Origin: Planctomycetota bacterium
GTDB taxonomy: Bacteria; Planctomycetota; Planctomycetia; Pirellulales; Lacipirellulaceae
Length of the DNA stretch: 64,000 bases
Assembly (NCBI GenBank): GCA_963578605.1
Contig: CAUZEA010000001.1
Location: 83,749-147,748, forward strand
Direction of reading: 5' to 3'
The notes beneath the pieces were generated by a model. The model was not told the DNA's origin, did not search any database, and worked only from the letters and a program-made list of their open reading frames with translations. The stretch's first letter is position 1, and every line of letters starts with the position of its first letter. A program made the position numbers and the translations under genes. This document shows positions 11,886 to 63,872 of this stretch, one piece after another.

Positions 11886-12047
11886 AGCGTCGCCTTGATT
11901 GAGCGAGTTCTCATGCAATCGGTCGTGCCAACCGGGCAAGTCCGGTGAGGAAATTTCCAGCTTGTGCCCTTGCTCGGTGTGTTGGTCCATCCGCGCTAAA
12001 CATTGCCACGTCGTTCCCGGCAAACAGGCGGCGGTGTGGCCCCGCTT

Positions 12048-43884: not shown

Positions 43885-45195
43885 TCACCGATCGTGTTGG
43901 ATCGTCACGCGGAGTGTGCCGTCATTGTCGCCAAGGCGGCCTGGTGAATCATTCACACTTAGATAAAGCGTACCGTCATGCTGGGGGCGGACGGTTGTAT
44001 CCAAACCGAGCACCCATGGTTCGAGAAAATGGGCAGCACGTGATGGTTTCCCGCCACCAGGGTCGATCGCGCCCAGCAACACCCCGAGCGGATTTCCGCG
44101 ATGATACTCCAGCGACACTCCGCCAGGCTCACACCACCAGGGTCCCGCCTCGTCCGCGGAAATCTGGTACCGCCCGCTGGCCAGGATCCGGTAGGTTTCT
44201 CCCGATTTCAGCAGCAGTTGTGAGGACTGCCAACCCCGATCGACACGCAGGTCAACCGTCTCACTGCCAGCGATCGGCTTTCCGGGCTGAAAATCGATCG
44301 CCGTTCGCTGAATGTCGTGCCCGTGGTCAAGCGTGGCCACGAAGTTTTGCCACTCGATCGAAAGCTCATCCCAATCGTCAGCGAAGAGATTGCGAACCCG
44401 CGTGTTGAAAGCAGGATCTCGCACGTGGGCGAGTAAAGAGCGAAACCGCTCACGATAACGCGGATGATCGTCCAACAAGCGTGCGGCAGCCCAACACCAT
44501 GCGTAAGCTTTGTTATCGAGAAATTTCCGGTTGTCGGTGGCCAGAACCGCAGGCAGCGTCATCGCCTGGTGGTCTGCAAAGGCATCTTGAACCAGCTTGA
44601 TGCGGCCAAGCATGGGCACCTCGCTGCGCGAAGTTGGCAGGTGGCGAAGCACAAGTCTGCCACTTGCCCGATCCAACCGATGGGTTGCCAACAGCTCGGC
44701 CATGCCTTCCATGAACCAGCCAGGGCCACAACGCCCCAGCTGCGTTGCCATGAAAGCATGGGTCCCTTCGTGCAACAGCAAGTGGCGACGGTAGTACGGG
44801 GTCGGTTGCTCAACCAACCAGAGTTCATGACCCCGCGTAAATCCGTGGCGAAAACCGTCGTTCCCGGGCGGCATGAGACCAACCGCATCAAACCTGGCAC
44901 GATCTTGAATCAAATACGCCCGCATCCGCCAATCGCTGGTTCTAGATCGGTCAACCCCGAGGGCATCGGCCCACTGGGGAACTGCTTGATCAAAAATGGC
45001 CGGGAGTTGATCCACCTCGGCATCGGCAGGGAGATCGGTGTAGAGCGTGAGATGCTGACTTTCGAGCTTGCGGATCCCGGCGGCACCGATGCGGGTTTCA
45101 TCCACTCCAGGGACCTGGGCCAACAGCTGGGACGCGAGCAGAACCACGGTCCACAGGCTGACCCGGCAAGTTGAGAAAGTGCATTGAAAAGTCAT
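43885..45195 (-). CDS. Exported HExxH zinc-metallopeptidase-like protein (DUF1570-like, tentative) with a beta-rich C-terminal domain
   Basis: Signal-like N-terminus [16 protein letters not shown]. Motif [13 protein letters not shown]. Confidence 0.7.
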
Positions 45196-45243: not shown

Positions 45244-48200
45244 CTACGGACCGAACAGTTTCTGAAGCGCTTTGTTAAGCTCTCCGCCAAGTTCCTCGCC
45301 GAGCGCGCCGCCAGCCACTCCGCGGAGAAGCTGCGTGGAAAGCGCCATCACTGCGCTGGCATCGACAGCAGGACGTGAAAGCGTGCCGCGCACAGGGATC
45401 TTCACCACCTGACCGAGCAACCCGGCGAGCCACGGCACATCGGCCACCCAATTGTCGGGGATCGGAATCATAACTGTTAGATCAAGTGTTTGGTTCAAAC
45501 CAACCGAGCCCTGTGAGCGCACAATCACGTCACCGACGTGGAACTCCAAACCTTCATGATACACACGTCCGCCGACAAGGCGGAATGGAACGGCGCAATC
45601 GCGGATTTCCAGCAGCTTCCTGGGAGGTCGATTCACCAAAGCCTGCGGATTTCGGTTCTTGAGCAGATCCTCGACAGTCTGAGCCAGGCCGACCCATTGT
45701 TCGGTCGACGACCCGGGCAAAACATCGATCGTATGAATCTCTAACGTACCCGCCACATCCGCTTGCTGGCCATCCACAAGTGGTAGACGAGCTGCCGCCA
45801 AATCCATCGAAAAAAGACCTTCGCTCTGGGTTGCATCCGCCAACACGGGTGCGATGTATTTGAGCATGACATCGCTCACTTCGGGTGAGACGTTGACGTT
45901 GGTGAACAACTTCCCGGGAGGCAAGGTCAGCTCACCAGGGGCGGGAGCGATTTTTAGCACCGGCGCCGTTGAAAAGCGTCCCTGTGCCACGGCAAAATCG
46001 AGCGGGGCAAATCGAATGCTGCCGCTGGCAAGTTCGCCTTGTACAACCCCGGGACCCAGTGTCAGACCAAACACCCGGGCACCCTGCCATGGCGCGGCAA
46101 ACTTTGCGCGTAAGGCCTGGGCCCAGTGATCAGCGGACGTTGAGACAAGTCGTGCCGGAACTGCCGGATTCGAATTCACGCCAAGCAAAGGGCCAACCAC
46201 ATCGAATGTGGCCTGCTCGCGACCCTGGAACTCGACCGTGGTACCTACGTATGGCTTGATGAGCGCCGTAATCCGGGCCAGATCATAGTCCAGCGTGCCG
46301 CGAAGGTTGACATCACCGGTTGTTTGCAAACGAGCCACCGTCCCGCTGGTCGTCATCGTGAGGGTTTGCGAACTGATTTGCAGAGCATCGAGCGAAAGAA
46401 GTTCCACTTGTTTTTGGTACGTTGTCTGCCCAGTGACTGTAAGAACGGGTTCCTGCCAAATGGTTTCGTAGCCACCTCCCTGGGGTTGAAGCTGAGCTAG
46501 CGTTAAGTTGTCTCCCTGGAGATTGAGCTCGGCACGGACCTGCTTCTGGCTTCCCTCAAACCGCAGGTTGCCCGTCACCATGCCACTGGTTTTCCAGGCG
46601 GGACGCTGGCCTGGGATACTCCGCAGCGAGCCAAGTCTGGCCACATCGGCCCGCACTGTCAGCGTTCCCAAGGCCACGGGCAACCCCTCGTCGGGGAACA
46701 CCACCTGCACGTCTCGGCCCGCAACCTCGGCAGTGCTACAAACGAATTGCAGCTCTCGGGAAACGAGTTGGCGCTGCCTGCCGTCCCAACGCAAATCGCC
46801 AGTCAGTGTGACGCGTGGCTCATCGATTTGCCAGCCTGACCCCACCCCGTGGAGATTGGTCACTACGAGTTTGCAACTCGAAACATCGAGCTGATCTGCC
46901 GCCAGGCGAAGCTCTGTGTTCAAATCGAGTTCACCATCCACTTGCCACGCAGTCGTGTTGACGATTGGGTGGGCCCGCGCGAGCCACCGTCCGACGTGTC
47001 CCTGGGCACGAATGGCTAAAGACCAGAGCGGAGACTCTTTCTTGAAGTCGATCACACCCTGTATCGTGGCGTCGAGCATGTCGTCTTCGGCACGCAGCTG
47101 CAACTCACCCGCATCCAATCGGACAAGCCGCCCTGTTTGATCGAGTGCTCCCTGGACCGTGGTGGTGATCTGCAGTTGCGGTTCCTCCCAAACCGTGGTG
47201 CCACCCGATTGAAGGGAAAAATGATCGAGGCGAAACGAACTGTCAGCCGCAAATTTCCCATCCGCAGTTTTCTGCCACACCAACTGCGCGGTGCCGGTAC
47301 CGGCAGGTTGCCACGCGCCCAAATCAATAAACTGACCAAGCTGCCGGGCCAGCCGGCTGAGATCAAACTGAGCCTCTGCGCGAAGATTCTGCGCATCGCC
47401 CTGGGCGGTAATTCGGCAAAAGTCCGCCACGCATTCAAGCCGGTCGATGCGGAACTGGTGACCACCGAGCATGGTCTCGAAATCGATACGAATTGGCTGT
47501 TCCCACCGCAAGACTTGTCCGTGGCTCGTCGCTACGAGTTGGGCGGCGTCCAAGGAGCCCGAAAGCTGGTGCCCCCCCTCCAGCGGTTGGTTGCGAATCG
47601 CGAGGTTCAACGCTCCGGAAGTGATGGTTGTCCCTGGACGAATGTGGAGGGTGTTGGGAAGCATCTCGGCAAGCCTGGCCAGATCAAGATTGCCCTGCAA
47701 GGTAAAGTCTTGCGGAGCGATCACGTCGCGCGATGTTCCACCGGTCAGGGAGGCCCATTCGATGGTCCCTTGAGCGGTCAGAGTGCCAATTTCCGAGCGA
47801 CAGGCAAGTTCGTTGATCAAAACCTCGCCGCCCTGCGTGTAGATATTCCAGGGGGCATCGACACGCCGCAAACGAAAACGGTCGGCGGCGAGGCTTCCGG
47901 CGGTAAAATCAAGCTCCTCGATCGTGAGATTGCCGCTCGAGGCAAACCGGTCCGGCAATATCCCGATCCCCGCCTTGAAAGCATGTCCAGCTGGCAAATC
48001 ATGTCCAGCTGGCCAAGTGGCGAATCCTTCCACGGTAAGCCAGCCGAGCAACTGTGGCCGATCCGTCACATTTTGCAGCCAAGGGGTCAGCGGGCCCATC
48101 GGCACGCGATTACAACGGCAATCAAACCGGTTGCGCCCTTCGGGTGTCTGCCCCAGTCTAACGGCAAAGCAGCCTTCAGCGACGTTGCCTGCGGAATCGA

Positions 48201-48852
48201 CCGGTGGCGTGGGGTTGACAGGGTCTTCTCCCGGAACAACCCGCCCGGCGGCTGTGAGGGCCATCAATCCCTGGTCAGATTGACCCGACCTGAATTCGGC
48301 ATTGGTGTTTTCGATGCGCCAAGTTTGACCGGTCGCCGCATCCTGGACGACGACCGCTGCGTTGGTAACGCGGACCACCGCTTGAATCTCCGACGGCAAC
48401 TCGAGGAAGGAGGACTGTTGCTCTGCGATCGGCTCATTGTGCGACTTCCGCAGGGCCTGGAGAACGTCTTGCCAGTTGCTTCCATCGGGGCGAACGCGAA
48501 GGTAGACCACGGGTGATTCGACGGAAACTGTCCCCAAGCTTCGCGGGTTTCCCAACAACGCCAGTGGTGAGCGATCGATCTTCACCACGCTGGCGGTGAA
48601 CAACGGTTGACCGGCCGAATCGTTTAGCTGTAGGTCGTAGATGGCCGAGGGCGCAAACCAACTGATCGAAGCCCCGCCGCTTGTGAGGCGAAGTCCGTCG
48701 TGGGGAACCCATAGCTGTAAACATTGATTCCGCAAACTGGACTTGGCAATCAGCACCGGTAAAAGTGCGACGACGATCGCCAGCAACAGCAATACCGACA
48801 ACACTCGGGGAAGGACTCTCCCAAGCCGATTCGTGGTGGCAAGTTTCGACAT
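45244..48852 (-). CDS. Large (about 1200 aa) N-terminally anchored beta-rich envelope protein, AsmA/TamB-like (tentative)
   Basis: Start MSKLATTNRLGRVLPRVLSVLLLLAIVVALLPVLIA, followed by a long G/T/L/Q-rich sequence without catalytic motifs. The function call is weak; the CDS itself is strong. Confidence 0.6.
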   Translation of the reverse strand: MSKLATTNRLGRVLPRVLSVLLLLAIVVALLPVLIAKSSLRNQCLQLWVPHDGLRLTSGGASISWFAPSAIYDLQLNDSAGQPLFTASVVKIDRSPLALLGNPRSLGTVSVESPVVYLRVRPDGSNWQDVLQALRKSHNEPIAEQQSSFLELPSEIQAVVRVTNAAVVVQDAATGQTWRIENTNAEFRSGQSDQGLMALTAAGRVVPGEDPVNPTPPVDSAGNVAEGCFAVRLGQTPEGRNRFDCRCNRVPMGPLTPWLQNVTDRPQLLGWLTVEGFATWPAGHDLPAGHAFKAGIGILPDRFASSGNLTIEELDFTAGSLAADRFRLRRVDAPWNIYTQGGEVLINELACRSEIGTLTAQGTIEWASLTGGTSRDVIAPQDFTLQGNLDLARLAEMLPNTLHIRPGTTITSGALNLAIRNQPLEGGHQLSGSLDAAQLVATSHGQVLRWEQPIRIDFETMLGGHQFRIDRLECVADFCRITAQGDAQNLRAEAQFDLSRLARQLGQFIDLGAWQPAGTGTAQLVWQKTADGKFAADSSFRLDHFSLQSGGTTVWEEPQLQITTTVQGALDQTGRLVRLDAGELQLRAEDDMLDATIQGVIDFKKESPLWSLAIRAQGHVGRWLARAHPIVNTTAWQVDGELDLNTELRLAADQLDVSSCKLVVTNLHGVGSGWQIDEPRVTLTGDLRWDGRQRQLVSRELQFVCSTAEVAGRDVQVVFPDEGLPVALGTLTVRADVARLGSLRSIPGQRPAWKTSGMVTGNLRFEGSQKQVRAELNLQGDNLTLAQLQPQGGGYETIWQEPVLTVTGQTTYQKQVELLSLDALQISSQTLTMTTSGTVARLQTTGDVNLRGTLDYDLARITALIKPYVGTTVEFQGREQATFDVVGPLLGVNSNPAVPARLVSTSADHWAQALRAKFAAPWQGARVFGLTLGPGVVQGELASGSIRFAPLDFAVAQGRFSTAPVLKIAPAPGELTLPPGKLFTNVNVSPEVSDVMLKYIAPVLADATQSEGLFSMDLAAARLPLVDGQQADVAGTLEIHTIDVLPGSSTEQWVGLAQTVEDLLKNRNPQALVNRPPRKLLEIRDCAVPFRLVGGRVYHEGLEFHVGDVIVRSQGSVGLNQTLDLTVMIPIPDNWVADVPWLAGLLGQVVKIPVRGTLSRPAVDASAVMALSTQLLRGVAGGALGEELGGELNKALQKLFGP

Positions 48853-49019
48853 CAAGAAGATCCGTGGAGGTTTGTAGTGGTTACCGTGCGACCACCGGGA
48901 AATGCTCCCGGGGCAGCGGCTTGCAAGGACCGGCATTCTAGAAATTCAGGCCGTTTCAGGCCAGCAAGACTGGCCCCGCAAAGCCGGAAAAATTGCGGCA
49001 TGCTAGCATGCAACCGGTT

Positions 49020-51362
49020 CTACAACTCGAAGTTAAACGTCCGAGTCAGGTAGCGCCAGAGACGCTGACCCAGCGTACGGGGTGCCGTCTTAATCCTCCC
49101 CTGGCCAACGAGCCCGACTCGGAGGATGTCATCGATGTCATCGTCTGGCAGGGGCGCAACCGCCTCGTAATAGGGCTTGAGGGGGCGATCGGTCCCGGTC
49201 TGATCCATCTGGCTGGGAATATTGCCGCCATGAAGCCCGGAGAGACGTCGGGGGGTTTCCTTGAGATTCTCCGCCGACTTCTGCTCGATCTGGCTGGTGT
49301 AGATGTGGTCCGCAGACTGATCGAGCATGATGTCAACTTCTTGCCCCTTTTCGACCAGGGCAATGTCGTTCTGATCAATCACCATGCGTGCTTCGAGACG
49401 GTGGGGGTCCCCAATCAGGCAGAGCTTGGTACTGGGTAACAATACGGCTCCGAGGTTTTCCGGATCCAAGGGCGATCCGGACCAGCTGGGCAAGCGACGG
49501 TCGTCATCAGGGGGTTCTGGCAGCCGCGGTGGAGCCATGACCACACCCGCTTCAGGCGCAAAGATGCGGAGCCGCTCTGCATCGAGTCTCAATTGCTCGA
49601 GGTTAGTTTCAACCGATTGCAACGCCTTGTTTGTTTGGGCAAATTCACCCGCGGAACGTCGCGAGTCTCCTCCGATCTTACGGAGGCTGGCAAGTCGTGT
49701 TTGATACCAGCGTCGCTCTCCTTCTTTTTCGGCAATTCCGAGCTCGTTGTCGATGTTCGAGAGCCAGGCCAGCAACTGCCCTTTTTCGACGACTTCACCA
49801 GGCTTTACGCGCACGTCTTCCAACACCCCGGGAACTTCAACATAAACAATAGCAGGATCACGGGGATGAATTTCCAGGCTGCAAAACACTCGGGCGGGGA
49901 GTGGAATGAACATCACTCCACTAATAACCACCGCGATTACCACGATCGTCGTCACCATGGGGGCACGTTTCACTTTTCCTAATCTCCCTGGTACTTTGAG
50001 AAACTTGTAAAGCTTCCAGAACGGCTGCACGATCAGACCGTAGAGTGCTGCAACGGCAATCAGCTGGCCGATGATTTTCAAACCGTAAGGCTCAAAAACC
50101 CTGTTCAGGAAAAACAAAATCGAGAGGACAATGACCCAGCGATAAATGGATGCCGCCACGGTGTAGAGGGCAAAGAGACCCTGCTTGCGTTTGGGCAGGA
50201 AGGGATCTTCCGGCTCTTCCAGGCCCAAACACCAGGAGCCGAGTTTACGGCTTAAGATCGCATTGGCTTTTTGGCGGAGATTGGGAATTTCGAGAATGTC
50301 GCTGAGGATGTAGTAACCGTCGTATCTGAGGAGTGGATTGGCATTGAACAGAATCGTACTCACCGAGCAGATGAACATCACGTTGAGCGCAAAATAATGC
50401 AGTGCACCTGGATTGGTAAACCACCAGATAAATGTACCAATCGAGGCGAGCACCAATTCGATGAATATTCCTGCCGCGCCAATAAATGCGCGATGCCAAC
50501 GGTTTGGCAGCATCCACGAATCGGAAACGTTGCAATAAAGGCACGGCGTCAGCACGAGAAACATCACACCTATTTCATGACACTCACCGCCGAAATGTTT
50601 GCAGGAGAGCCCGTGACCAAACTCATGCACAATCTTGGTCACTGCCAGGGTCAACCCCAGCCAGAGCCAATTCTGGGCAGCGAAGAAGGATTGAAACGAC
50701 GGCAATCGTGACTGGAACGTCTGAAATTGCACCAGCACAAGCGTCAACGCGCTCAACACCAACAGGCAACTAAAGAAGAAAGTAGACTTGCCAAAACACC
50801 AGCGAAAATAGGGATAAATGATGTTCAGAATCGGATCGGGGTCAAACCCCTTGAAACGAAACGCCAGGATGTTGGTCATATTAGCCAACCGCTGCTTCCC
50901 GGTACGTTCCTTGCCCCGCTTGCTGAGTTGGACACCTTGACCAGCCACCCCGGTGATCACCAACCCGCTACGGTGCAGCATGCCAATGAACTGTTGTAAT
51001 TCGTCCGGTTGAATCGTCTGGGGGGGAAAGTCGTTGGCAAATTGCTCAGCAATTTCCTCCAGGCTTGATTGACCATCGAGCATTTGCAGGATGGAAAATT
51101 CTTCTTCTTCAAACCGAAAATACTGCAATCCGATCGGCTCTTTCACGACCCAGTAGGCACGGCCCTGATACCGGTGCTTTCTTGCGACCAAGTCAGGCCG
51201 TACGCGGATCGACAGCTTGCGGCTGGAACTCGGAACCAAACTTTCGGCCAGGGTTGCCATAGAAGCTTTCGAAGACTGCGAAGTTCCGAGGTACCACCTG
51301 TCGACCCGATCGGCAGGCTTCACGAGCATGGAAAATTTCCCGGCCAATCGCCAACTGCACAC
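49020..51362 (-). CDS. Fusion protein: PqqD/RRE-like domain, polytopic M50 (site-2-protease-like) metalloprotease, C-terminal HlyD-type adaptor domain
   Basis: FSILQMLDGQSSLEEIAEQFANDF...ELQQFIGMLHRSGLV (PqqD-like). HEFGHGLSCKH and NANPLLRYDGYYILSD (M50 HExxH and LDG-type motifs). C-terminal EVPGVLEDVRVKPGEVVEKGQLLAWL...IFAPEAGVV (barrel-sandwich). The true start may be ATG at 51260. Confidence 0.8.
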   Translation of the reverse strand: MCSWRLAGKFSMLVKPADRVDRWYLGTSQSSKASMATLAESLVPSSSRKLSIRVRPDLVARKHRYQGRAYWVVKEPIGLQYFRFEEEEFSILQMLDGQSSLEEIAEQFANDFPPQTIQPDELQQFIGMLHRSGLVITGVAGQGVQLSKRGKERTGKQRLANMTNILAFRFKGFDPDPILNIIYPYFRWCFGKSTFFFSCLLVLSALTLVLVQFQTFQSRLPSFQSFFAAQNWLWLGLTLAVTKIVHEFGHGLSCKHFGGECHEIGVMFLVLTPCLYCNVSDSWMLPNRWHRAFIGAAGIFIELVLASIGTFIWWFTNPGALHYFALNVMFICSVSTILFNANPLLRYDGYYILSDILEIPNLRQKANAILSRKLGSWCLGLEEPEDPFLPKRKQGLFALYTVAASIYRWVIVLSILFFLNRVFEPYGLKIIGQLIAVAALYGLIVQPFWKLYKFLKVPGRLGKVKRAPMVTTIVVIAVVISGVMFIPLPARVFCSLEIHPRDPAIVYVEVPGVLEDVRVKPGEVVEKGQLLAWLSNIDNELGIAEKEGERRWYQTRLASLRKIGGDSRRSAGEFAQTNKALQSVETNLEQLRLDAERLRIFAPEAGVVMAPPRLPEPPDDDRRLPSWSGSPLDPENLGAVLLPSTKLCLIGDPHRLEARMVIDQNDIALVEKGQEVDIMLDQSADHIYTSQIEQKSAENLKETPRRLSGLHGGNIPSQMDQTGTDRPLKPYYEAVAPLPDDDIDDILRVGLVGQGRIKTAPRTLGQRLWRYLTRTFNFEL

Positions 51363-51409
51363 GAAAACTTGTCGCTGGAGCCGGCGCTACGGACGACTGG
51401 TCGGAAACA

Positions 51410-52447
51410 CTATTTGACCCGGTCGCTGAGCAGAACTTTCTCTGCCGTACCGAGATGGATGGTCATGGTGGCCTGTACCCCAGGATGGATTTGCCAGTTA
51501 CCGTCGACTAGTTCGTTGGTGACCTCAGCCCGAACTTTCCAGCAGTAGTCCTCACCACCGCGCCAGACAGCCACCGGATTGACCCAGACGATTTTTCCCT
51601 TGGCTTTTGCGGATCTGCCTCCACCAGCTGCCACGTCCACCGTCACCCCACAGCCAAGGATCTGGCTGGGCTCGAATTTTTTGACGCCGATCTCACCCTC
51701 AACATAGAGGGTATCGAGTTGCACCAGTCTCAAGATGGGGTCACCCGGGTTCACCCATTCCCCCTGTTGACGGAATATCTTGACGATCTCGCCTTTGCAG
51801 GGAGCAAGGATGGTCCGACGCTCAATCGCCATTTCCGCCGCTTCGAATTCGGTTCTTTTGGTCCAGTAATCGTATTTAGCCAGTTCGCGGTCGTTGCCGG
51901 CTTTTTCGATCGCCAGACCTGCCCGTTCGGCATCGAGCCTCAGACGCTCAAGTTCCACAAAGGGCACTGCCCCTTTGCGTTTGCGATCCAAATCCTGGTT
52001 GAGCTCATATTCTTTTTCGGCAACTTTGTGGGCTTTGGTGGCGTATCGGACGTCGATGTCGTCTTCGGCCTGTTTTTTCGCTTGCGCCATACCGTATTTG
52101 GCAGCGGTCTTTTGCATTTGAGCTTGCTGATCATCGACGCGGCCCAGTTCGGCGTTCTCTTCGACTCGACTACCTTCCTCAACGTCAAGCTTGATCAGCA
52201 AGCCTGGCTCAGAAGCCGAGACGCGGAGGTCTTTGGCAGGTTCGACGATGCACTCGGTAACCACCGGGTCTGCTGAACTGGACGGCTCTGTCGGCGCGGC
52301 CTCTTGGGCTCTCACCACGAGGTGGGTGGCGAGGATCAGACCAAACACAACCGGGAAATTCGATGTTTTCATATTCTTGATTCCGAGGATACATGCCCTG
52401 CGAAGGGTACTAGCCAGCGGTTTTGCCGCAATCAACTTCTTTTTCAT
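51410..52447 (-). CDS. HlyD-family periplasmic adaptor (membrane fusion protein)
   Basis: VSASEPGLLIKLDVEEGSRVEENAELGRVDD, long coiled-coil segment, ILAPCKGEIVKIFRQQGEWVNPGDPILRLVQ. The ATG overlaps the upstream TGA (ATGA). Confidence 0.85.
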   Translation of the reverse strand: MKKKLIAAKPLASTLRRACILGIKNMKTSNFPVVFGLILATHLVVRAQEAAPTEPSSSADPVVTECIVEPAKDLRVSASEPGLLIKLDVEEGSRVEENAELGRVDDQQAQMQKTAAKYGMAQAKKQAEDDIDVRYATKAHKVAEKEYELNQDLDRKRKGAVPFVELERLRLDAERAGLAIEKAGNDRELAKYDYWTKRTEFEAAEMAIERRTILAPCKGEIVKIFRQQGEWVNPGDPILRLVQLDTLYVEGEIGVKKFEPSQILGCGVTVDVAAGGGRSAKAKGKIVWVNPVAVWRGGEDYCWKVRAEVTNELVDGNWQIHPGVQATMTIHLGTAEKVLLSDRVK

Positions 52448-54609
52448 CCGAACCGGAACAACACATGCCGTTTGAATGCGTCGATCAGCGAGTGAAAGAT
52501 GACGTAACCAACCGGTTGTTCACCGCAATGGACCTTGGCCGTCGCCCCGGCATTCACTTTGGGATCGGCAACGATTTTACGGAGTTCATCCTGACCGAAG
52601 GTAACACGAATCAGGACGGCGTTACCGGCGTCGTCGTGAGGCTCGACAACTTCTTCAATCTCGACCACCTGGCCCGTCAAACGGTCTGAGGGGTGCGTCG
52701 CCAGAATGAATGTGACCTCTTGGTCACCACCACTCTGATCCCAGTATTTCTGAATATGTCGCATCCGCGACTCCGGCATACTGATTTCCAGTTCCCAGTC
52801 ACCCGCCGGATCGGCAACGGTCATGAGTTGTTCACCGGGCGTGACGGTCCGCCCCAGCAGCTTTTCCTCAAGTTCCCACGTAATGACCTGCCCAGCAATG
52901 GGACTGTAAAGCTTCAGTTTTTCACTTTTCTGGCGGAGCAGGTCGAGACGCGTTTCCAAAGTTTCTTTTCGCACTCGAAGCCCGGCGAGAGCCGCCGCTT
53001 GCTCGTGTAGTTGCTGTTCATAACTGTCGCGCCCGTCGTCCGAATCGCGCTGCGTTGCCCGCATCTCTTCCAAAACTTCCTGATATTCCCCCTCGGTCTG
53101 CTTGATGTCAGTCTCCAAATCGATACTTTCCTGAATGACCAACAGCTGACCTTGATCGACCGGTTGATCGTTGGTGACCAGGACCTGACGGATTTCGCCA
53201 TTGAGCGCAGCAAAGACTCGGGCCCGCTCGACCGGGCGCAACCGCGCATCACCTTGAGGGGCAAACTCGTACGGCACAAAGACCGCAACAGCCACCAAAA
53301 TGGCCGCGGCTCCGATGACCAAAAGCGTTTTGGGCAACTTGCGGCCCCGAAACAAACCGGCCGCCTTGCCCAAGGTCTTCCAAACGGGCATTAAAAACAG
53401 CCCTTCATACTCGACTGCGTTGTTCAGAGCGGTCGAACTGTGACTGCGAACCACGTCGACACGGTGCGTAAAACCATCTGCAGGCCGGCTGTCAACCATC
53501 TGTTCCACGATCAAAGCGCCCAGGAGACGTGGCGGGGTTTGATCGGTACGGAGATCTTCTTCATCACGGGGTTCGAACAGTGGCAACACGGCCATCGCCT
53601 TGGTATGCGACTCGTCGACATACGTCTCGAGCGCCTGTTCGACCTGGGGGGCCATGTTGGACGTGTCGCCCGTGTACCACACATCTTCACCGGTACGGGT
53701 CACGGCGTGGGCCAGTTTGCCCAGCAGCACCGTCACGTTGGAGCGCTTGTCGAAGGCGTCCTGCCCACTGATGGCTTCAATCGGACACCGCTGACCACGC
53801 TGAATCGCGATACTGACACGGTCGCAACCGATCAAGCGCCGCCCCTCATTGGCGATGGTGTACGCAGTCTGGCGGACTTCCAGCTTTTCATGGGCCAGTC
53901 GCGTAAACGACTCAAGTTGTTCCCACAACAATTGCTTGTCCGAAAGATGTCGCAGCCGCCGCCCACGCAGGAAATCGCTGGCCAGTTCGCAAGCCTGCAA
54001 GAGAAAACGCAAATAACCGCGCTGCGTGGCAGCTCGAGCCCCCGGCCGTTGGAATACTTCCACCACACCCTGGGCCCCCTGGTCATTGTGGATCGGTCCC
54101 AACACCAAGAGGAACTCGGTCGGATTTGCCGCAGTCGACTCGTCGTCATCGCTTTCTCCCGCGTGACCCGAGTGCGGCGCAACGAGTGCCCCCTCCGTGC
54201 CCTCGAGCACCTGGTGGAGCAACCGGGCATGTTGCATTTGGGCAACTTGATTTTCGGCCAGCTCTGCGTGGCGGAAATTGATTTGATATACCAGCTGCAA
54301 GCCACCGTTGTCGGCGACCGTCCAGACAGCCCCCCCCACCGCTGCCAACGCCGTAACGACACGGTTCAACAGTGCGTCGTAGAAGGCTTCGGGAGTGACA
54401 TCGGTTCGAGAGAGTTCGGCAATCTCCTGAATCAGGCCCTGAATCTCACGCTTGGCGCGAGCGACCGCCTCGGCATCGATCGTCGGGGCCCCGCCTGGAG
54501 AATCCGCCGGATTGGAATATTGGGGTGGGTTCACAATGTGGAAAAAATTTCGGTGGGTGGTGTGTAAAAGCTTAGGCGAGAGGAATGACTGCGGAATCAC
54601 CCGGTTCAC
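52444..54609 (-). CDS. GAF-GAF-TM-HlyD protein (cytoplasmic sensor modules fused to a periplasmic adaptor)
   Basis: GAF-like 1: LAAVGGAVWTVADNGGLQLVYQ...LLVLGPIHNDQGAQGVVEVFQ. GAF-like 2: IGCDRVSIAIQRGQRCPIEAISG...AMAVLPLFEP...LGALIVEQ. TM: LLVIGAAAILVAVAVFVPY. HlyD: VFAALNGEIRQVLVTNDQPVDQGQLLV...LYSPIAGQVI. GTG start is uncertain. Confidence 0.8.
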   Translation of the reverse strand: MNRVIPQSFLSPKLLHTTHRNFFHIVNPPQYSNPADSPGGAPTIDAEAVARAKREIQGLIQEIAELSRTDVTPEAFYDALLNRVVTALAAVGGAVWTVADNGGLQLVYQINFRHAELAENQVAQMQHARLLHQVLEGTEGALVAPHSGHAGESDDDESTAANPTEFLLVLGPIHNDQGAQGVVEVFQRPGARAATQRGYLRFLLQACELASDFLRGRRLRHLSDKQLLWEQLESFTRLAHEKLEVRQTAYTIANEGRRLIGCDRVSIAIQRGQRCPIEAISGQDAFDKRSNVTVLLGKLAHAVTRTGEDVWYTGDTSNMAPQVEQALETYVDESHTKAMAVLPLFEPRDEEDLRTDQTPPRLLGALIVEQMVDSRPADGFTHRVDVVRSHSSTALNNAVEYEGLFLMPVWKTLGKAAGLFRGRKLPKTLLVIGAAAILVAVAVFVPYEFAPQGDARLRPVERARVFAALNGEIRQVLVTNDQPVDQGQLLVIQESIDLETDIKQTEGEYQEVLEEMRATQRDSDDGRDSYEQQLHEQAAALAGLRVRKETLETRLDLLRQKSEKLKLYSPIAGQVITWELEEKLLGRTVTPGEQLMTVADPAGDWELEISMPESRMRHIQKYWDQSGGDQEVTFILATHPSDRLTGQVVEIEEVVEPHDDAGNAVLIRVTFGQDELRKIVADPKVNAGATAKVHCGEQPVGYVIFHSLIDAFKRHVLFRFG

Positions 54610-55629: not shown

Positions 55630-57432
55630 GTGATCCACCGCCGTACCGTTTTGTTGACCTACTTTTGTCTGCTAACGACCACCGCACTCTGCCCGCTCGC
55701 GACAGCCCAGCCCACGTTACAGCCAACAAAGGCCGCTTTCGCAGTTGTCGGCGAACACGAATCGGTCGCCACGATAGCCATTAACAGTTACGACAACCTG
55801 CTTGCCGATGCCAATTTCATCGGCAGCCTGGCAGGTTACCCTGAAATCGGCAATATGGTGGAAGGCTTCATCGCCTTGTTCACCCAGGGGAAAGGCCTGG
55901 TTGGCCTCGATAAGTCCAAACCGTGGGGAGTACTTATCACGACCGACGGTAAGGAGTTCATGCCGATTGGCTGTCTGCCAGTCCACGACTCGAAGGACCT
56001 GCTGCAGCTGCTGGCCGCCTTCCAAATCAAAGTCGATGAACGTGACGATCACCTCGTGGAAATCACTACCCCGAACGGTCCGCCGCTTTTTGTGGTCGAA
56101 AAAGATGGCTGGGCCTACATTTCCAACAAAAGCGAATACCTGGACCCGGTTCCTGCCAACCCCGAACAACACTTCAGGTCCCTGGTCAAAGATTACGATC
56201 TGGCAGTGCAAGCTTCCGTCCAGAAGATTCCGAGCGAATACCGCGATTTGGCGATTGATCAGCTTCGCGCTGGTCTGCAAGAAGGACTGAAAAAGGAAGC
56301 GGATGAGGATGACGAAACCTTCGAAACCCGTAAACGATGGTCCGAATCGCAGTTGCAAAACATCGTGACGGGTATTGACGAGATCGATCAGGTTGTCATC
56401 GGCTGGGCGATCGACTCCAGCAAACAAAACACCTACTTCGACTTTATCTACCGGGTCTTGCCAGAAAGCGATCTCAGTAAATTGCTGGCGTCGATCGCTG
56501 CAAATGTCCACTCCAACTATGCCGGATTCTATCAACCTGAATCGGCCGCGTGCCTCACCTTCATCGCCAAATCCGATCCTAAGTTCAACGAGCGTGGAAT
56601 CGAGCAAATGAAGGCGACGATGTCGACCCTGCGGGAACAAATTGCCAACGGAATCGACAAAGAAGATGGGGATCTCCTGAAAAACGCAAAAACAAAAGCA
56701 GCTCTCAAAAAGGTCGTGTTTGGATTTCTCGACGCATTCGAAGAAACAGTAGCAACGGGTAAATCGGCAGGAGGGGCTGTGCTGGATCTCTCCCCAGATT
56801 GGTTGACAGTTGTAGTTGGCTGCTACGTGAAAGACCCCAGTAAGATTGATGAAAGTCTCCACGAACTGGCCAAAATAGCGGAAAAAGAGCCTGAGTTCCC
56901 GGGGGTAAACTGGAATGCCGACGAACATGAAGGAATCACGTTTCACACTATTCAGGTTCCCATCGGCGACGACGACGCGGGAGCCGACGATGACGACGAA
57001 CAAGCAAAGAAACTCGAACAAGCAAAGAAACTCTTAGGCCCGACGGCCGACTTCTCGATCGGCGTTGGAAAAGAGTCGGTCTATTTTGGCTTCGGACGTG
57101 ACAATTTGGGGAGAACCAAGGAAATTATCGACTCTTCCCTGGCTCAACCCAACAAACCCATGCCCATGGCCGAATGGATGATCTCGTTAGGGCCTATTAT
57201 GGAGGTGGCTGCTGAATTCTCCGACGACGATGACCCGCAGCAAAAGAAGATTTTGCAAACCATTGTCCAGATGTTGCGAAATGAGTCCCAAGGTAAAGAC
57301 CACGTTACCGCTGTCGCTACACCCATTGAGAACGGATTAAGATATCGCGTCATCGTTGAAGAGGGTGTTCTCCGAGCTTTGGGCAAAGCTGCCGCGGCTG
57401 CCAGCCAGGGCGCTGATGGGAGTGGTTCTTAA
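55630..57432 (+). CDS. Hypothetical secreted protein, acidic
   Basis: GGAG precedes the GTG. Signal peptide MIHRRTVLLTYFCLLTTTALCPLATAQP. The competing antisense ORF 55717-57021 has implausible composition. Confidence 0.7.
   Translation: MIHRRTVLLTYFCLLTTTALCPLATAQPTLQPTKAAFAVVGEHESVATIAINSYDNLLADANFIGSLAGYPEIGNMVEGFIALFTQGKGLVGLDKSKPWGVLITTDGKEFMPIGCLPVHDSKDLLQLLAAFQIKVDERDDHLVEITTPNGPPLFVVEKDGWAYISNKSEYLDPVPANPEQHFRSLVKDYDLAVQASVQKIPSEYRDLAIDQLRAGLQEGLKKEADEDDETFETRKRWSESQLQNIVTGIDEIDQVVIGWAIDSSKQNTYFDFIYRVLPESDLSKLLASIAANVHSNYAGFYQPESAACLTFIAKSDPKFNERGIEQMKATMSTLREQIANGIDKEDGDLLKNAKTKAALKKVVFGFLDAFEETVATGKSAGGAVLDLSPDWLTVVVGCYVKDPSKIDESLHELAKIAEKEPEFPGVNWNADEHEGITFHTIQVPIGDDDAGADDDDEQAKKLEQAKKLLGPTADFSIGVGKESVYFGFGRDNLGRTKEIIDSSLAQPNKPMPMAEWMISLGPIMEVAAEFSDDDDPQQKKILQTIVQMLRNESQGKDHVTAVATPIENGLRYRVIVEEGVLRALGKAAAAASQGADGSGS
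56998..57033. repeat. Perfect 18-bp tandem duplication inside a CDS
   Basis: gaacaagcaaagaaactc occurs twice, encoding EQAKKLEQAKKL. Confidence 0.9.
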
Positions 57433-59767: not shown

Positions 59768-61639
59768 ATGCCTCTTGAACCAGGGAAGATCTATCAAGGC
59801 GATTGCCTTGAACAGATGTGTGAAATCGCGGATGGCTCGATCGATCTTGTTTTTGCCGATCCGCCATTTAATATTGGCCACAAGTACGACAAGTATGACG
59901 ATCGTCGGGACGACGGTGCTTATGTCGACTGGTCGAAAGCTTGGATCGAGTCCGTTTACCGCATACTGAAACCAAACGGCACGTTCTGGTTAGCCATTGG
60001 TGACGAATACGCGGCAGAACTGAAGGTCGCCGCCCAGCGGGAAACCCGATTTTGCACCCGCAGCTGGGTCGTGTGGTATTACACATTTGGTGTGAATTGC
60101 ACGAAGAAATTCTCGCGTTCGCACGCACACCTTTTGCATTTCGTAAAAGACGAGAATGATTTCACCTTCAACGCCGACGATCCGGCACTTCGGATCCCTT
60201 CAGCGCGGGCTTTAGTCTACGGCGACAAGCGGGCCAACCCGAAGGGACGCCTGCCGGATGATACCTGGATCCTGCGGCCCCAGGATTTTCAGTCGGACCA
60301 ATACGGCTACGATCCTCGGCAAGACACCTGGTATTTTGCCCGGGTTGCCGGCACTTTCAAAGAACGGCAAGGTTTTCACGGCTGCCAGATGCCTGAACAG
60401 CTTTTGGGGCGGATTGTTCGAACCAGCAGCAACTCGGGGGATCTCGTGCTGGACCCCTTCGCCGGCAGCGGAACGACGCTCGCGGTGGCGAAAAAACTGG
60501 GCCGTCGATGGCTGGGGTGTGAGCTTTCGGCAGACTATGTCCGTTACGCATCCGAGCGACTGGAAGCCGTCAAGCGGGGTGATCCACTGACTGGCCCGGC
60601 CGACCCCATCGCCAGCGCACCGACCACAGCCGCTGGTCGTCGCCTACCCGGGAATCCGGCAGCCGAAGCAGCCGTCCAAGCACAAGAATCGGTGGAATCG
60701 GCTCCCACAGCAGCGTCGGCAACGGCGGGCACCGATCAGGGTACCCAGACCATTAAGCCCGCTCCTGAAGAAAAACAAACGTCTGGCCAGGTCGATCGGA
60801 CTGCGGCGGCAATTTTCACCAGGCCGAATGTCCGCAAGTTCATCCGTGATGTGCTCGTAGATGCCTTCTACGGCACGCATGACGGATACTCCTCCGACTG
60901 GCTCCTGGCCAACCCCGATTTGCAAAATGCCTTTCACGGCGCCTGCCGCCACCAGGGGCTCATTGGCAACCCAGCCGATTGGAATCATGAACTGATCCGC
61001 CTCCGCAAAGCGGGTCAATTCCCCAAACGAGGCAAAACGAGGTCGATCCCGGTAACGGCTGCAGAAATGGATGCCTACAACTTTGCCGCGGAAATCGCAT
61101 GGCGACTGGCAAGCAATGAATTTAAGGACTCCTCGCTCGACGAGATTTTTTGTGATCCGGTAAAAGCAGCCAGTTTCGACCGCCGCGCGAAACGCTTCAC
61201 ACCAGGGTTCCATCCCAGCCAGTATCGCTGGGCAGCACTGCGGCTCCGAAAAGCGAGTCGGGAACTTGTCAAAGAAGTCAAAGCGTTTCACTATGTCTTT
61301 GAAACGCGGAACTTCACGCGATTTCAACGCTGGGACCGGTTGAACCACGACCGCTATGCGGGGATCCCGGGCGTTTATTTGTTGCGGGGCGAGGACAAGC
61401 AACCACTTTATATTGGAGAAACCTCCAACCTGGGTGAACGGCTGAGCCGCCATCGGGACTCTCCAGCGACAGCGCAGAGGGTTCGGCACATTGCCTGGAT
61501 TTCTGATCGCCAGTTGCCGAGTCGTGAATATCGCCAGCCGCTCAAGGTCGCTTTGGTAGATCGGTATCAGCCCCTCTGGAATGTGAATCTGGTCGGCGTT
61601 TCCGAAGAAGTGACTGCGCCAGAAAATCACGTGGTGTGA
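59768..61639 (+). CDS. Beta-class N6/N4 DNA methyltransferase fused through a low-complexity linker and a middle domain to a C-terminal GIY-YIG-like module
   Basis: DLVFADPPFNIG (motif IV) precedes VLDPFAGSGTTLAVA (motif I). Ala/Pro/Thr-rich linker follows. C-terminus is GVYLLRGEDKQPLYIGETSNLGERLSRH...LVDRYQPLWNV. Confidence 0.85.
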   Translation: MPLEPGKIYQGDCLEQMCEIADGSIDLVFADPPFNIGHKYDKYDDRRDDGAYVDWSKAWIESVYRILKPNGTFWLAIGDEYAAELKVAAQRETRFCTRSWVVWYYTFGVNCTKKFSRSHAHLLHFVKDENDFTFNADDPALRIPSARALVYGDKRANPKGRLPDDTWILRPQDFQSDQYGYDPRQDTWYFARVAGTFKERQGFHGCQMPEQLLGRIVRTSSNSGDLVLDPFAGSGTTLAVAKKLGRRWLGCELSADYVRYASERLEAVKRGDPLTGPADPIASAPTTAAGRRLPGNPAAEAAVQAQESVESAPTAASATAGTDQGTQTIKPAPEEKQTSGQVDRTAAAIFTRPNVRKFIRDVLVDAFYGTHDGYSSDWLLANPDLQNAFHGACRHQGLIGNPADWNHELIRLRKAGQFPKRGKTRSIPVTAAEMDAYNFAAEIAWRLASNEFKDSSLDEIFCDPVKAASFDRRAKRFTPGFHPSQYRWAALRLRKASRELVKEVKAFHYVFETRNFTRFQRWDRLNHDRYAGIPGVYLLRGEDKQPLYIGETSNLGERLSRHRDSPATAQRVRHIAWISDRQLPSREYRQPLKVALVDRYQPLWNVNLVGVSEEVTAPENHVV

Positions 61640-61713: not shown

Positions 61714-62805
61714 CTAGCCGGATGGATCGGCAACTTCGGTCTGTTGGACCGTCCGGGCAATCTTGCGGTTCTCCTGTTGCACCAGTTGACCGCAGGCAGC
61801 AGCGATATCGGCCCCGAGCGAATAGCGGATGGTTGTTGTGTAGCCAGCCGATTTAAGAATGGTGGCAAACGCATCTCGGCCAACGCGTTCGGTACTTTTC
61901 AGATGGGGTGCCTCTCGGATGGGATTGAATGGAATCAAATTGACGTGCACGCGCAAGCCATTGAGCCACTCCACCAGTTTATGCGCATCGTCAGCTGAAT
62001 CATTACGACCCGCCAACATGAGATATTCAATCATCACGCTGCATCGCTGAATCTGATTGATCCGCTCAAGCGCCATGTGCAGTTCCGCGAGGGAATACCT
62101 GGCTGCCAGGGGAATGATCTGCTGGCGAAACTCCTGGCATGCACTATGCAAACTGAGCGCCAGGTGGACTTCGGGAAACCGCCCCGCAGAGCGGATCATC
62201 GCAGCCGGAATTCCCACCGAAGATATCAAAATGCGCCCCGGTGTGTGGTGGAACAGCCGTGGGTCGAGTAACGCATTAACCGTTTCGTAGAGAGCCTGTT
62301 CATTGTGAAATGGCTCACCCATCCCCATAAATACAATATTGCGTACACGCCGGCCTTCTTCGGCAAGCAGTTCTCCGGCAACCACAATCTGATCCAGCAT
62401 TTCGGCAGCAGAGAGATCGTGGGCAATCCCCATTTTTCCGGTCGCACAAAAGTCGCAGTTCGCAGCGCAGCCAACTTGAGACGAAACACAGAGTGACGTC
62501 CGTCCCGACCCTGATCGCAGCATGACTGTTTCGACCAAATAGCCCTGTGCAGTGCGGAAGAGAACCTTCGTTGCACCGTCCAGTTTCGAGTCGTATCGTC
62601 CCTCGACGGTCAGCGTGCGGAACTTGAGTTGTTGACGAACTGCTGGGCGCTGCTCCGTTGGAATTTCTGCCAGGGCTGCCTCGGGGCCCAACGATTTCTT
62701 GAAGAAAGCGGTGCGCAAACGGCGAATCCGTTGCGGTTCGATGCGGAACTCCGCTCGCAAGCGATCGACCGAAACGGAATCATAAATGCTGCAAGAAGCC
62801 ATCAC
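61714..62805 (-). CDS. rlmN: 23S rRNA/tRNA adenine-C2 methyltransferase, radical SAM
   Basis: CVSSQVGCAANCDFCATGKMG, VFMGMGEP, SLHS, and C-terminal GADIAAACGQL with the conserved Cys. Confidence 0.9.
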   Translation of the reverse strand: MMASCSIYDSVSVDRLRAEFRIEPQRIRRLRTAFFKKSLGPEAALAEIPTEQRPAVRQQLKFRTLTVEGRYDSKLDGATKVLFRTAQGYLVETVMLRSGSGRTSLCVSSQVGCAANCDFCATGKMGIAHDLSAAEMLDQIVVAGELLAEEGRRVRNIVFMGMGEPFHNEQALYETVNALLDPRLFHHTPGRILISSVGIPAAMIRSAGRFPEVHLALSLHSACQEFRQQIIPLAARYSLAELHMALERINQIQRCSVMIEYLMLAGRNDSADDAHKLVEWLNGLRVHVNLIPFNPIREAPHLKSTERVGRDAFATILKSAGYTTTIRYSLGADIAAACGQLVQQENRKIARTVQQTEVADPSG

Positions 62806-62822
62806 GCTGGATCCCGAATCTG

Positions 62823-63872
62823 CTAGTCTTGCCGGGCAATGTCACACGGAACTTTGCTTTTCGCGCCGGGAATCTCGACCACGAATTGGGGGACAGCATA
62901 TCCCGGCAACCGCTCACGTAATTGCTTGAGAATAAACTGGCCCTGATGCGGGGGAACCTCAAAATGGGCCGCGCCCGACACCCGATCGAGCTGGTGCAGA
63001 TAGTAGGGCATGACGCGAAGGTCGACGAGACGTTCGGCAAGCGCCAGTTGGGCCTCCACGGAATCGTTCACCCCCGCAAGCAAGACCGCCTGATTCAAAA
63101 CCGGGATCCCCGCATCAATCAGCGCCCCAATGGCCGTCACGACATCTCCAGCCAGTTCCTGAGCATGATTCGCATGAATGACCATCACCGGCACCAGACG
63201 CGTGCCGGTCAACCACTCGATCAGTTCGGTGGTCACGCGTTCGGGGATGACAACGGGCAAGCGGCTATGAACCCGCAGGCGACGAACATGGGGGATGGCG
63301 GCCAGGCGGTCGGCCAGGGCGGCCAGGTGCTCGTCGACCAGTGTGAGAGGATCGCCACCACTGAAAATCACTTCGTGAATCGATCTGTCCGCGGCAATCG
63401 TGGCCAAAACCGGCTGCCAGCTGGCAAGCGAGTTGGGCGTTTGCTCGTATGGAAAATGCCTGCGAAAACAATAACGGCAATGGACAGCGCAGGCACCGGT
63501 CACCACCAACAACACGCGGCCGGGATATTTCTGGAGCAATCCGGGAGAAAGGGTCGCAGCCGCATCGCCAACGGGATCGGCAACAAATCCGGGCGAATCG
63601 TCCATTTCGGCCTGAACGGGCAGGACCTGACGGAGCAGCGGATCCGCCGGATCACCCGGCACCATCCGGCCAATGTAGCCCCGCGGGGCGAAAAGGGGGA
63701 AATCGCTACAGGCAGCCTTGGCACGCAGGGCAAATTCCTCCGGCAATTCGAGCAGTCCGCAGAGTTCAACCGGATCTCGCACCGCGTCCTTCATCGCCGC
63801 CTGCCACGACTCATAACCGGATTCTGCACTGCCGGGGCGGACAGATGCGGTTGGGCAGGTTAGAATTGGCAT
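62823..63872 (-). CDS. epmB: Lysine 2,3-aminomutase-like radical SAM enzyme (KamA/EpmB family)
   Basis: VTGACAVHCRYCFRRHFPY, FSGGDPL. Divergently adjacent to efp. Confidence 0.75.
   Translation of the reverse strand: MPILTCPTASVRPGSAESGYESWQAAMKDAVRDPVELCGLLELPEEFALRAKAACSDFPLFAPRGYIGRMVPGDPADPLLRQVLPVQAEMDDSPGFVADPVGDAAATLSPGLLQKYPGRVLLVVTGACAVHCRYCFRRHFPYEQTPNSLASWQPVLATIAADRSIHEVIFSGGDPLTLVDEHLAALADRLAAIPHVRRLRVHSRLPVVIPERVTTELIEWLTGTRLVPVMVIHANHAQELAGDVVTAIGALIDAGIPVLNQAVLLAGVNDSVEAQLALAERLVDLRVMPYYLHQLDRVSGAAHFEVPPHQGQFILKQLRERLPGYAVPQFVVEIPGAKSKVPCDIARQD

Follow-up and report, generated by a model that had tools for sequence, protein, structure and literature searches.

What could three periplasmic adaptors be doing in a gene run that encodes no pump? 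The question is raised by a 64,000-nucleotide stretch of a Planctomycetota genome (GenBank assembly GCA_963578605.1, contig CAUZEA010000001.1; the whole stretch is called the window below), in which three genes, here G1, G2 and G3, follow one another on the minus strand between positions 49020 and 54609, each encoding a HlyD-type adaptor and G3 also an intramembrane metalloprotease. A first-pass annotation of the DNA had read the run as a ligand-gated device for peptide processing, release or signalling. Our analysis, which relies on comparative genomics only, favours a different answer with a probability of roughly 0.55: G1, G2 and G3 would make up the core, in the inner membrane and periplasm, of a type-I-like apparatus, independent of any ATP-binding cassette (ABC) transporter, that recognises, processes and exports large leader-bearing proteins.

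Architecture of the three proteins

The open reading frames (ORFs) are present and co-directional on the minus strand as first listed (Table 1), and together they encode a long adaptor with a cytoplasmic domain (G1), a short adaptor (G2) and a fusion (G3) of a PqqD-like RiPP recognition element (RRE; RiPP, ribosomally synthesised and post-translationally modified peptide), an M50 protease and an adaptor. All three products are HlyD-family adaptors: each passes the family thresholds and has its adaptor module placed after a transmembrane (TM) helix or signal peptide. The description of G2 as a conventional periplasmic adaptor is borne out by its matches to Pfam HlyD_3 (41.3 bits) and HlyD_D23 and to NCBIfam RND_mfp (64 bits).

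The protease core of G3, first described as site-2-protease-like, belongs to peptidase family M50. Pfam Peptidase_M50 (PF02163) scores 33.2 bits against a cutoff of 27.2, and the motifs HEFGH (residue 212) and NANPLLRYDG (residue 306) are both intact and lie inside predicted helices. All 75 planctomycete homologues keep these motifs in their general form, HExxH and NxxPxxxxDG, as do 6 of 7 proteobacterial ones, and the spacing of 94 residues is identical across phyla. The C-terminal module also answers to its earlier description as HlyD-like, with HlyD_3 above threshold (31.9 bits, cutoff 22.2) and Foldseek matches of its AlphaFold2 (AF2) model to MacA, MexA and AcrA (E 5e-13 to 1e-10, about 1e-12). 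The AF2 model of the whole protein (predicted local distance difference test, pLDDT, 83.7) runs from a cytoplasmic sheet with three helices through about seven TM helices and then a final TM helix that follows a basic stretch, to the periplasmic module; with the N-terminus inside and an odd number of TM helices, the RRE would therefore be cytoplasmic and the adaptor periplasmic.

The N-terminal domain is where the first description of G3 needs qualification. Against Pfam PqqD (PF05402) the window protein itself scores 17.7-21.1 bits, under the cutoff of 23.4, whereas 12 of 16 members of its family match PqqD (best E 3e-6). The best PDB sequence matches of the domain are the lasso-peptide RRE TfuB1 (E 0.04) and PqqD (E 0.14), and AF2 models it as a beta-sheet followed by three helices (pLDDT 84-92). 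By its Pfam and PDB sequence matches the RRE assignment is thus supported at the level of the family, and the earlier statement that the only enzyme of the trio is an intramembrane metalloprotease carrying a peptide-recognition-type domain can be kept. Moreover, homology to the RRE-M50 leader peptidases of RiPP pathways extends over the whole of the N-terminal 410 residues (daptide_HExxH, E 4e-52; YydH/LiaK, 1e-13). An identity of G3 as the daptide biosynthesis intramembrane metalloprotease was ruled out, as it reaches 177.6 bits against the equivalog NF041824, below the 300-bit cutoff, and no daptide precursor or modifying enzymes were found among its neighbours in the window or in the planctomycete loci described below.

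In G1, the single TM helix and the HlyD-type adaptor were both recovered, the latter by HlyD_D23 (37.3 bits, cutoff 30) and HlyD_3 over residues 463-671; its profile also matches structures of MacA, EmrA and ZneB. A basic RGRKLPK stretch stands before the TM helix, and the N-terminus is therefore predicted to be cytoplasmic. Two GAF modules had been proposed there, and one of them was confirmed (Pfam PF01590, 28.8 bits against a cutoff of 22.4, E 2e-6). The other, at residues 44-222, was rejected as a second GAF domain: the window protein has no Pfam GAF match in this region, alignment to the GAF region by hhalign gave a probability of 4.8%, only one of eight homologues showed a weak GAF_2 match, and the confidence of the AF2 model of G1 is low over this domain. 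The cytoplasmic region is the best-conserved part of G1, for which 2941 homologues were collected, and this conservation would be as compatible with docking or coupling as with sensing. A database protein of 718 residues (P0271) is identical to G1.

No partner for the adaptors was found inside the window. Domain profiles of its approximately 35 large ORFs recovered no ABC, resistance-nodulation-division (RND), major facilitator superfamily (MFS) or TolC protein, an ABC motif scan found no ORF combining Walker-A with LSGGQ, and a TolC profile search gave no match, with a negative result also for the 10 kb past the right edge; the earlier statement that these 64 kb encode neither a pump nor a TolC-like factor therefore holds.

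Related loci in two phyla

The G3 family is large: a cutoff of E<=1e-3 gives 13403 clusters at 50% identity and one of E<=1e-30 gives 4543, and sequences with as little as about 36% identity still align over the full length. At least 596 G3-related loci were found in species-representative genomes, and the best 80 were taken for the study of neighbourhoods; 79 of these carry planctomycete labels and one has no classification. The first-pass annotation had asked whether the trio is conserved across the Planctomycetota and whether a pump or a small peptide gene always stands alongside. Profiles of the G1 cytoplasmic region and of G2 answered the first question, with a G1-like, a G2-like and a G3 gene directly contiguous and in this order in 48 of the 59 loci that had enough upstream flank. 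Among the other 11, three have G2 only and eight are lone G3 paralogues, some of them after a DUF481 barrel. The answer to the second question is negative: clustering of flanking ORFs at the 80 loci revealed no ABC, RND or MFS family that recurs beside the trio and no recurrent small peptide gene, the only small recurrent neighbour being DUF3467, adjacent in 23 of 70 loci. Its profile gave no informative match to PDB sequences. A SecA paralogue of 660-750 residues lies directly upstream of G1 in 8 of the 48 contiguous loci, and 10 loci have one overall.

Lone G3 paralogues without G1 or G2 neighbours were noted in loci L043, L044, L051, L059, L062, L074 and L077 (G3-like gene near 10001-12200). 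Four lone-paralogue loci (cluster c15) have a small signal-peptide DUF481 protein, a predicted outer-membrane barrel, encoded directly upstream (Pfam-checked only in L062), and some genomes carry a trio copy plus a second copy of G3.

Related clusters also occur on proteobacterial plasmids. A tblastn search of G3 against annotated plasmids returned 87 records from Alpha-, Beta- and Gammaproteobacteria, six of which cover at least 80% of G3, and 12 neighbourhoods were inspected. Full-length homologues, including some from E. coli, share 23-31% identity with G3 (28.6% in one, E 2e-72). The plasmid gene for the M50-adaptor fusion is accompanied by two further HlyD-type adaptors in 9 of the 12 neighbourhoods, and the best matches are one to one: G3 corresponds to the fusion (E 2e-72), G1 to the long adaptor, which also matches Pfam GAF, GAF_2 and GAF_3, and G2, as a best reciprocal match, to the short adaptor. 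A gene for a large or giant protein adjoins 10 of the 12 clusters, reaching 12-49 kb in eight, and these neighbours are annotated as LEPR-XLL, LamG-like, Ig-like, tandem-95 or autotransporter-associated repeat proteins. The clusters further include TolC (6/12), a truncated SecA-like gene (5/12) and DUF3467 (4/12), and none of the 12 has an ABC transporter inside it. The lack of a transporter partner is thus true of the window, but the related loci link the adaptors to TolC, a SecA-like ATPase, DUF3467 and giant leader-bearing proteins. In E. coli the plasmid version is rare (24 of 5426 complete genomes). One such plasmid, NZ_CP081687, encodes a 4460-residue Ig-like protein, TolC, two adaptors and the M50-adaptor fusion, whose HExxH motif reads HELGH.

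The SecA-like proteins (approximately 640-750 residues) match Pfam SecA_DEAD (1e-97 to 1e-104), the preprotein cross-linking domain and P-loop_SecA, and have no SecA_SW. In RefSeq, such paralogues are called 'DEAD/DEAH box helicase' or 'prepilin peptidase' (L083 11094-13079, L084 11180-13096, L091 13032-15056, L099 11105-13066), names that, judged by Pfam and NCBIfam, look like systematic mis-annotations. The cluster of Pseudosulfitobacter has a SapC-family gene between the M50 fusion and the SecA-like gene (L091 12218-13039). Genes of this family are otherwise associated with type I secretion loci for S-layers, and none was found in the window or in the planctomycete loci.

Eight of the 10 large proteins beside the plasmid clusters carry, near the N-terminus, a basic stretch and LE(P/x)RxLL or MF. 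Two of the eight match NF012209 (28-29 bits, cutoff 17), two are annotated as LEPR-XLL and in four the leader was read from the sequence. Examples are ...MEPRVLLSADP and ...LEPRVLLNADV, as well as ...FALESRQLFDGAA in the E. coli giant protein, ...MALEARYMFDAAA in a Variovorax protein, ...FEALEPRLLLSADF in a Mesorhizobium protein and ...FALEPRFMFDAAG in an Azospirillum protein, whose true start lies upstream of the annotated one. On plasmid p2 of Azospirillum sp. TSA2s (L093 685-3300, minus strand), the annotated start of a 13-kb repeat-protein gene falls inside the repeats, and the ORF extends about 400 codons further upstream, to an N-terminus with a basic stretch and the leader ALEPRFMFDAAG.

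The same type of leader is found on large proteins (664 to more than 2100 residues) in planctomycete trio loci. Over the first 120 residues the motif is six times as dense as in the remainder (P = 1e-4), a figure that concerns position within the proteins and not proximity to the trio against the genome background. Ten of 12 planctomycete motif hits are preceded by 6-11 K/R in the prior 30 residues, and these N-termini give weak but correctly placed matches to PF07595, 'Planctomycete extracellular'. The LE(P)RxLL-type motif is that of NCBIfam 'LEPR-XLL', and it resembles the Pfam 'Planctomycete extracellular' motif. Given the linkage to giant leader-bearing proteins in the related loci, the cargo is likely to be very large; the small peptides or signals first proposed give way to very large secreted or surface proteins, to which the related loci in both phyla point.

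A putative export apparatus and its alternatives

In the export apparatus that we propose, the cytoplasmic RRE of G3 would bind the leader, as its homology to RiPP leader-binding domains suggests, and the M50 site at the cytoplasmic face of the membrane, whose catalytic motifs are intact and conserved, would cleave it. The three HlyD-type modules (G1, G2 and the C-terminus of G3) may assemble into a mixed duct of the MacA/AcrA kind, by analogy with TriABC, and this duct would dock to an outer-membrane channel, which gene linkage suggests to be TolC in Proteobacteria and which may be a different channel in Planctomycetota. Energy could be supplied by the truncated SecA-like ATPase, which is without the C-terminal wing and scaffold region and is encoded within the cluster in some lineages and presumably elsewhere in the present genome. 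DUF3467 is a possible small cytoplasmic helper, and the conserved cytoplasmic domains of G1, including GAF, may couple or regulate the motor or the cargo. Equally compatible is a two-step variant in which the SecA paralogue would drive Sec-type translocation and M50 would serve as leader peptidase, with the adaptors and outer-membrane channel needed for the outer-membrane step only.

Several observations weigh against such an export role. The window holds only the three-gene core, and nothing there ties the trio to a cargo, motor or outer-membrane channel; no SecA-like gene, DUF3467, TolC or leader-bearing ORF was found in the 64 kb or in the 10 kb past its right edge. None of the 80 planctomycete loci links a TolC-like gene to the trio, and planctomycete leaders stay below the NF012209 and PF07595 thresholds. 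A SecA-like gene is missing from 7 of the 12 proteobacterial clusters and from most planctomycete loci, which makes the proposed energy source tentative, and a Phyllobacterium plasmid carries a classical type I secretion system (T1SS) ABC/HlyD pair 3 kb away from the cluster, on the opposite strand. Furthermore, the function would be carried over from relatives in another phylum, at the low identity given above. The weakest points are the outer-membrane partner in planctomycetes, where none is linked, and the energy source where the cluster has no SecA-like gene.

The alternative that survives best, although we consider it unlikely, is that the three proteins are conventional efflux or type I adaptors that work with an outer-membrane factor and an ABC, RND or MFS pump encoded elsewhere in the genome, the M50 fusion being an accessory. 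All three adaptors pass the HlyD-family thresholds and resemble MacA, MexA and EmrA, the database name is 'efflux transporter periplasmic adaptor', planctomycete operons are often dispersed, and the Phyllobacterium pair counts in the same direction. However, no such pump recurs at the 80 planctomycete loci or stands inside the 12 proteobacterial clusters, even where TolC and the three adaptors are contiguous. Nor do known pumps combine a catalytically intact protease with three different adaptors of which two have large conserved domains in the cytoplasm. The first-pass view that the run is a trans-envelope assembly and not a standard efflux operon is retained.

Less probable again is regulated intramembrane proteolysis, in which the protease would set free a regulator tethered to the membrane once GAF senses a ligand or the HlyD modules an envelope cue. 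GAF domains are common sensors, RseP and SpoIVFB are examples of M50 enzymes that act in regulated intramembrane proteolysis, and the locus lies among housekeeping genes. Yet no gene for a sigma factor, anti-sigma factor or transcription factor is conserved beside the trio, and the nearest M50 relatives are the RRE leader peptidases, not RseP-type enzymes with PDZ or CBS domains. Nor would this explanation account for the conserved association with genes for TolC, SecA-like ATPases and giant proteins that bear a leader.

A lower probability still is assigned to the maturation and export of a small RiPP-like peptide, with the RRE-M50 part trimming a short precursor and the adaptors channelling the product. 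The RRE fold and the homology to daptide and YydH/LiaK proteases set out above would be consistent with this, but the score of G3 lies far under the daptide equivalog cutoff. In addition, the 80 loci show neither a conserved small gene resembling a precursor nor a conserved modifying enzyme beside the trio, and the lone recurrent small neighbour, DUF3467, is also found in the giant-protein clusters. The radical-SAM genes of the window sit with efp and an EpmA-like gene, 7 kb away, and the trio is near-universal in the phylum and has a housekeeping context, unlike biosynthetic clusters. Finally, a machine for envelope biogenesis or lipid trafficking, formed with the AsmA-like product of G4, is very improbable: G4 follows G3 on the same strand, in an order kept in the closest relatives, and AsmA-like proteins bridge both membranes, but the two genes adjoin in no more than 4 or 5 closely related loci out of 80, G4 is absent from the proteobacterial clusters, and a weak hairpin lies 3' of G3.

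As to the type of system that the proposed export apparatus would represent, the module departs from the classical T1SS definition (ABC, HlyD and TolC) because it has no ABC transporter, and it departs from an RND, MFS or ABC tripartite efflux pump in having no adjacent pump gene. It resembles most the colicin V exporter CvaA-CvaB-TolC and the peptidase-containing ABC transporters (PCATs), in which a protease within the inner-membrane export complex recognises and cuts a leader, a HlyD-type adaptor leads to TolC and the cargo genes are adjacent. In those systems, however, a C39 cysteine peptidase is fused to the ABC transporter and the cargo is small, whereas the trio lacks an ABC transporter and has three adaptors, one of them bearing the RRE-M50 metalloprotease, and apparently giant cargo. 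Very large repetitive surface proteins encoded beside adaptor and TolC-family genes are also typical of LapA/LapBCE, SiiE/SiiCDF and MpIBP; these T1SS use a C-terminal secretion signal and an ABC transporter, in contrast to the N-terminal LEPR-XLL-type signal, the lack of ABC and the linked M50 protease and SecA-like ATPase of the present module.

Other known systems match single parts. The daptide (NF041824) and YydH/LiaK (NF058609) enzymes are homologous to G3 across RRE and M50, with the same catalytic motifs, but they are not fused to a periplasmic adaptor and act on short modified peptides that have separate ABC exporters, and G3 stays below their family cutoffs. Accessory SecA2 systems, both mycobacterial and the streptococcal accessory Sec (aSec) for serine-rich giant adhesins, likewise use a second, shortened SecA paralogue for a subset of cargo that is often very large. 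They are, however, Gram-positive or mycobacterial and work with SecY or SecY2, whereas the paralogue of the module, which has no SecA_SW, is linked to HlyD adaptors, M50 and TolC. TriABC-OpmH and MacAB-TolC share the MacA/AcrA-like adaptor fold and provide a precedent for different adaptors in one periplasmic ring, but an RND or ABC pump forms their base, where the trio would have three adaptors and a base with GAF, RRE and protease.

We therefore regard the module as a putative TolC-type trans-envelope secretion variant that would work most like the leader-cleaving type I exporters and the giant-adhesin T1SS, with a substantial chance of deserving a separate class. The fullest form of that claim can be offered only tentatively: the trio would define a distinct, unnamed class of diderm secretion system that is ABC-independent, built on three different HlyD-type adaptors, one of which carries an RRE-M50 leader peptidase, powered by a truncated SecA paralogue with DUF3467 as a possible helper, opening through TolC or another channel in planctomycetes, and dedicated to LEPR-XLL or 'Planctomycete extracellular' cargo. 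Were this so, it would be the main export route for large and giant extracellular proteins of Planctomycetota and for giant adhesin-like proteins encoded on proteobacterial plasmids, including those of E. coli. In agreement with the first-pass annotation, no functional description of the module was found in the searchable full-text literature, a search outside which subscription-only literature falls, so that a prior description is possible; it is not mentioned in an adaptor review, a Chem Rev T1SS review, a 2026 giant-protein preprint or a Planctopirus essential-gene paper.

An export role, if correct, would give a function to a family of thousands of 50%-identity clusters that now bear the names 'efflux adaptor', 'biotin/lipoyl-binding protein' or 'YydH-like protease'. 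It would provide a machinery for the LEPR-XLL / Planctomycete extracellular N-terminal motif, which marks many of the largest bacterial proteins and for which we found no assigned machinery so far, and it would imply that a protease and a SecA-like motor can replace an ABC, RND or MFS pump as the base of a TolC-type trans-envelope duct. It would also open a way to study the export of the large exoproteome in planctomycetes, a group in which the biology of the envelope is under debate. The E. coli plasmid version makes the idea directly open to standard genetics.

Gene starts, neighbouring genes and the rest of the window

The start of G3 is most likely the ATG at 51260, because its homologues are about 745 residues long with a conserved first methionine. 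The N-termini of G2 homologues carry a short signal peptide, and G2 therefore probably starts at the ATG at 52372. The letters ATGA at 52444-52447, first described as an overlap of G1 and G2, are present, but they are probably not the true junction between the two genes. On these starts, the spacing within the trio is likely 71 nt (G1/G2) and 149 nt (G2/G3). Promoter and terminator scans of the cluster gave scores near the shuffled expectation, and no Rfam element was found near it. A defence system was considered and rejected, as PADLOC defence families gave no match at the locus.

Table 1. Positions in the window of G1 to G4 and of the domains of G1 and G3
Feature	Position	Strand	Description
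G1	52444..54609	-	Alpha/beta domain and GAF (cytoplasmic), one TM helix, periplasmic HlyD/MacA-type adaptor; 721 aa from GTG
G1 N-terminal cytoplasmic domain, residues 44-222	53944..54480	-	Conserved alpha/beta domain; many invariant columns; not confirmed as GAF
G1 GAF domain, residues 246-380	53470..53874	-	Pfam PF01590 above cutoff
G1 TM helix, residues 428-446	53272..53328	-	Hydropathy 2.66; basic RGRKLPK stretch just before
G2	51410..52372	-	Periplasmic HlyD-type adaptor with N-terminal signal peptide; probably 320 aa; longest ORF reaches 52447
G3	49020..51260	-	Fusion of RRE (PqqD-like), M50 and HlyD-type adaptor; 746 aa from ATG 51260 (most likely start); longest ORF from GTG 51362
G3 RRE / PqqD-like winged helix, residues 15-105	50946..51218	-	Predicted cytoplasmic; sub-threshold Pfam PqqD; NCBIfam daptide_HExxH spans RRE and M50
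G3 M50 core, residues 140-455	49896..50843	-	About 7 TM helices; HEFGH 50613-50627, NANPLLRYDG 50316-50345
G3 adaptor module, residues 456-746	49023..49895	-	Barrel-sandwich, alpha-hairpin (helices 503-528, 534-562), beta-barrel; HlyD_3, AF2, Foldseek
G4	45244..48936	-	AsmA/DUF748-like envelope protein, 1230 aa; 83 nt downstream of G3, co-directional

The product of G4 has an N-terminal TM helix and sub-threshold N-terminal matches to Pfam DUF748 and AsmA, and may be a bridge-like envelope lipid-transfer protein. The gene adjoins G3 in L001, L002, L006 and L047, lies 5 kb off in L066 and is absent from the other loci; since the adjacency is limited to the closest relatives, G4 is probably not part of the core module, and its membership was rejected. 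The gene after G4 (43885-45195, minus strand) encodes a 436-residue secreted protein with an HEGTH motif and weak matches to collagenase, flagellinolysin and PA-IL-like families, and a homologue follows G4 in L047.

The genes of the window are mostly housekeeping or planctomycete-typical, including those for SHMT, MgsA, FabH, LysA, IF-1, ThiG, HisF, IMPDH, PilB/PilT-like ATPases, DUF1570 and a BBP2 porin. Two adjacent radical-SAM genes (61714-63872, minus strand) were considered as RiPP maturases and rejected; efp and the EpmA-like gene (tRNA-synt_2, 314 residues) lie just past the window edge (L094 1-10000), and the pair probably serves EF-P modification rather than RiPP chemistry. A gene whose 623-residue product joins an N6/N4 DNA methylase to a GIY-YIG nuclease domain at the C-terminus (59768-61639, plus strand) occupies the same place in L094. 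Between infA and lysA, at 55630-57432 on the plus strand, lies a gene for a 600-residue signal-peptide protein without a Pfam family, whose position is kept in the Pirellulales contigs L001 and L094. Finally, a 906-residue Ser/Thr protein kinase with a weak nucleotide-cyclase-like N-terminal region and a dCache-like C-terminal region is encoded at 9165-11885 on the plus strand.

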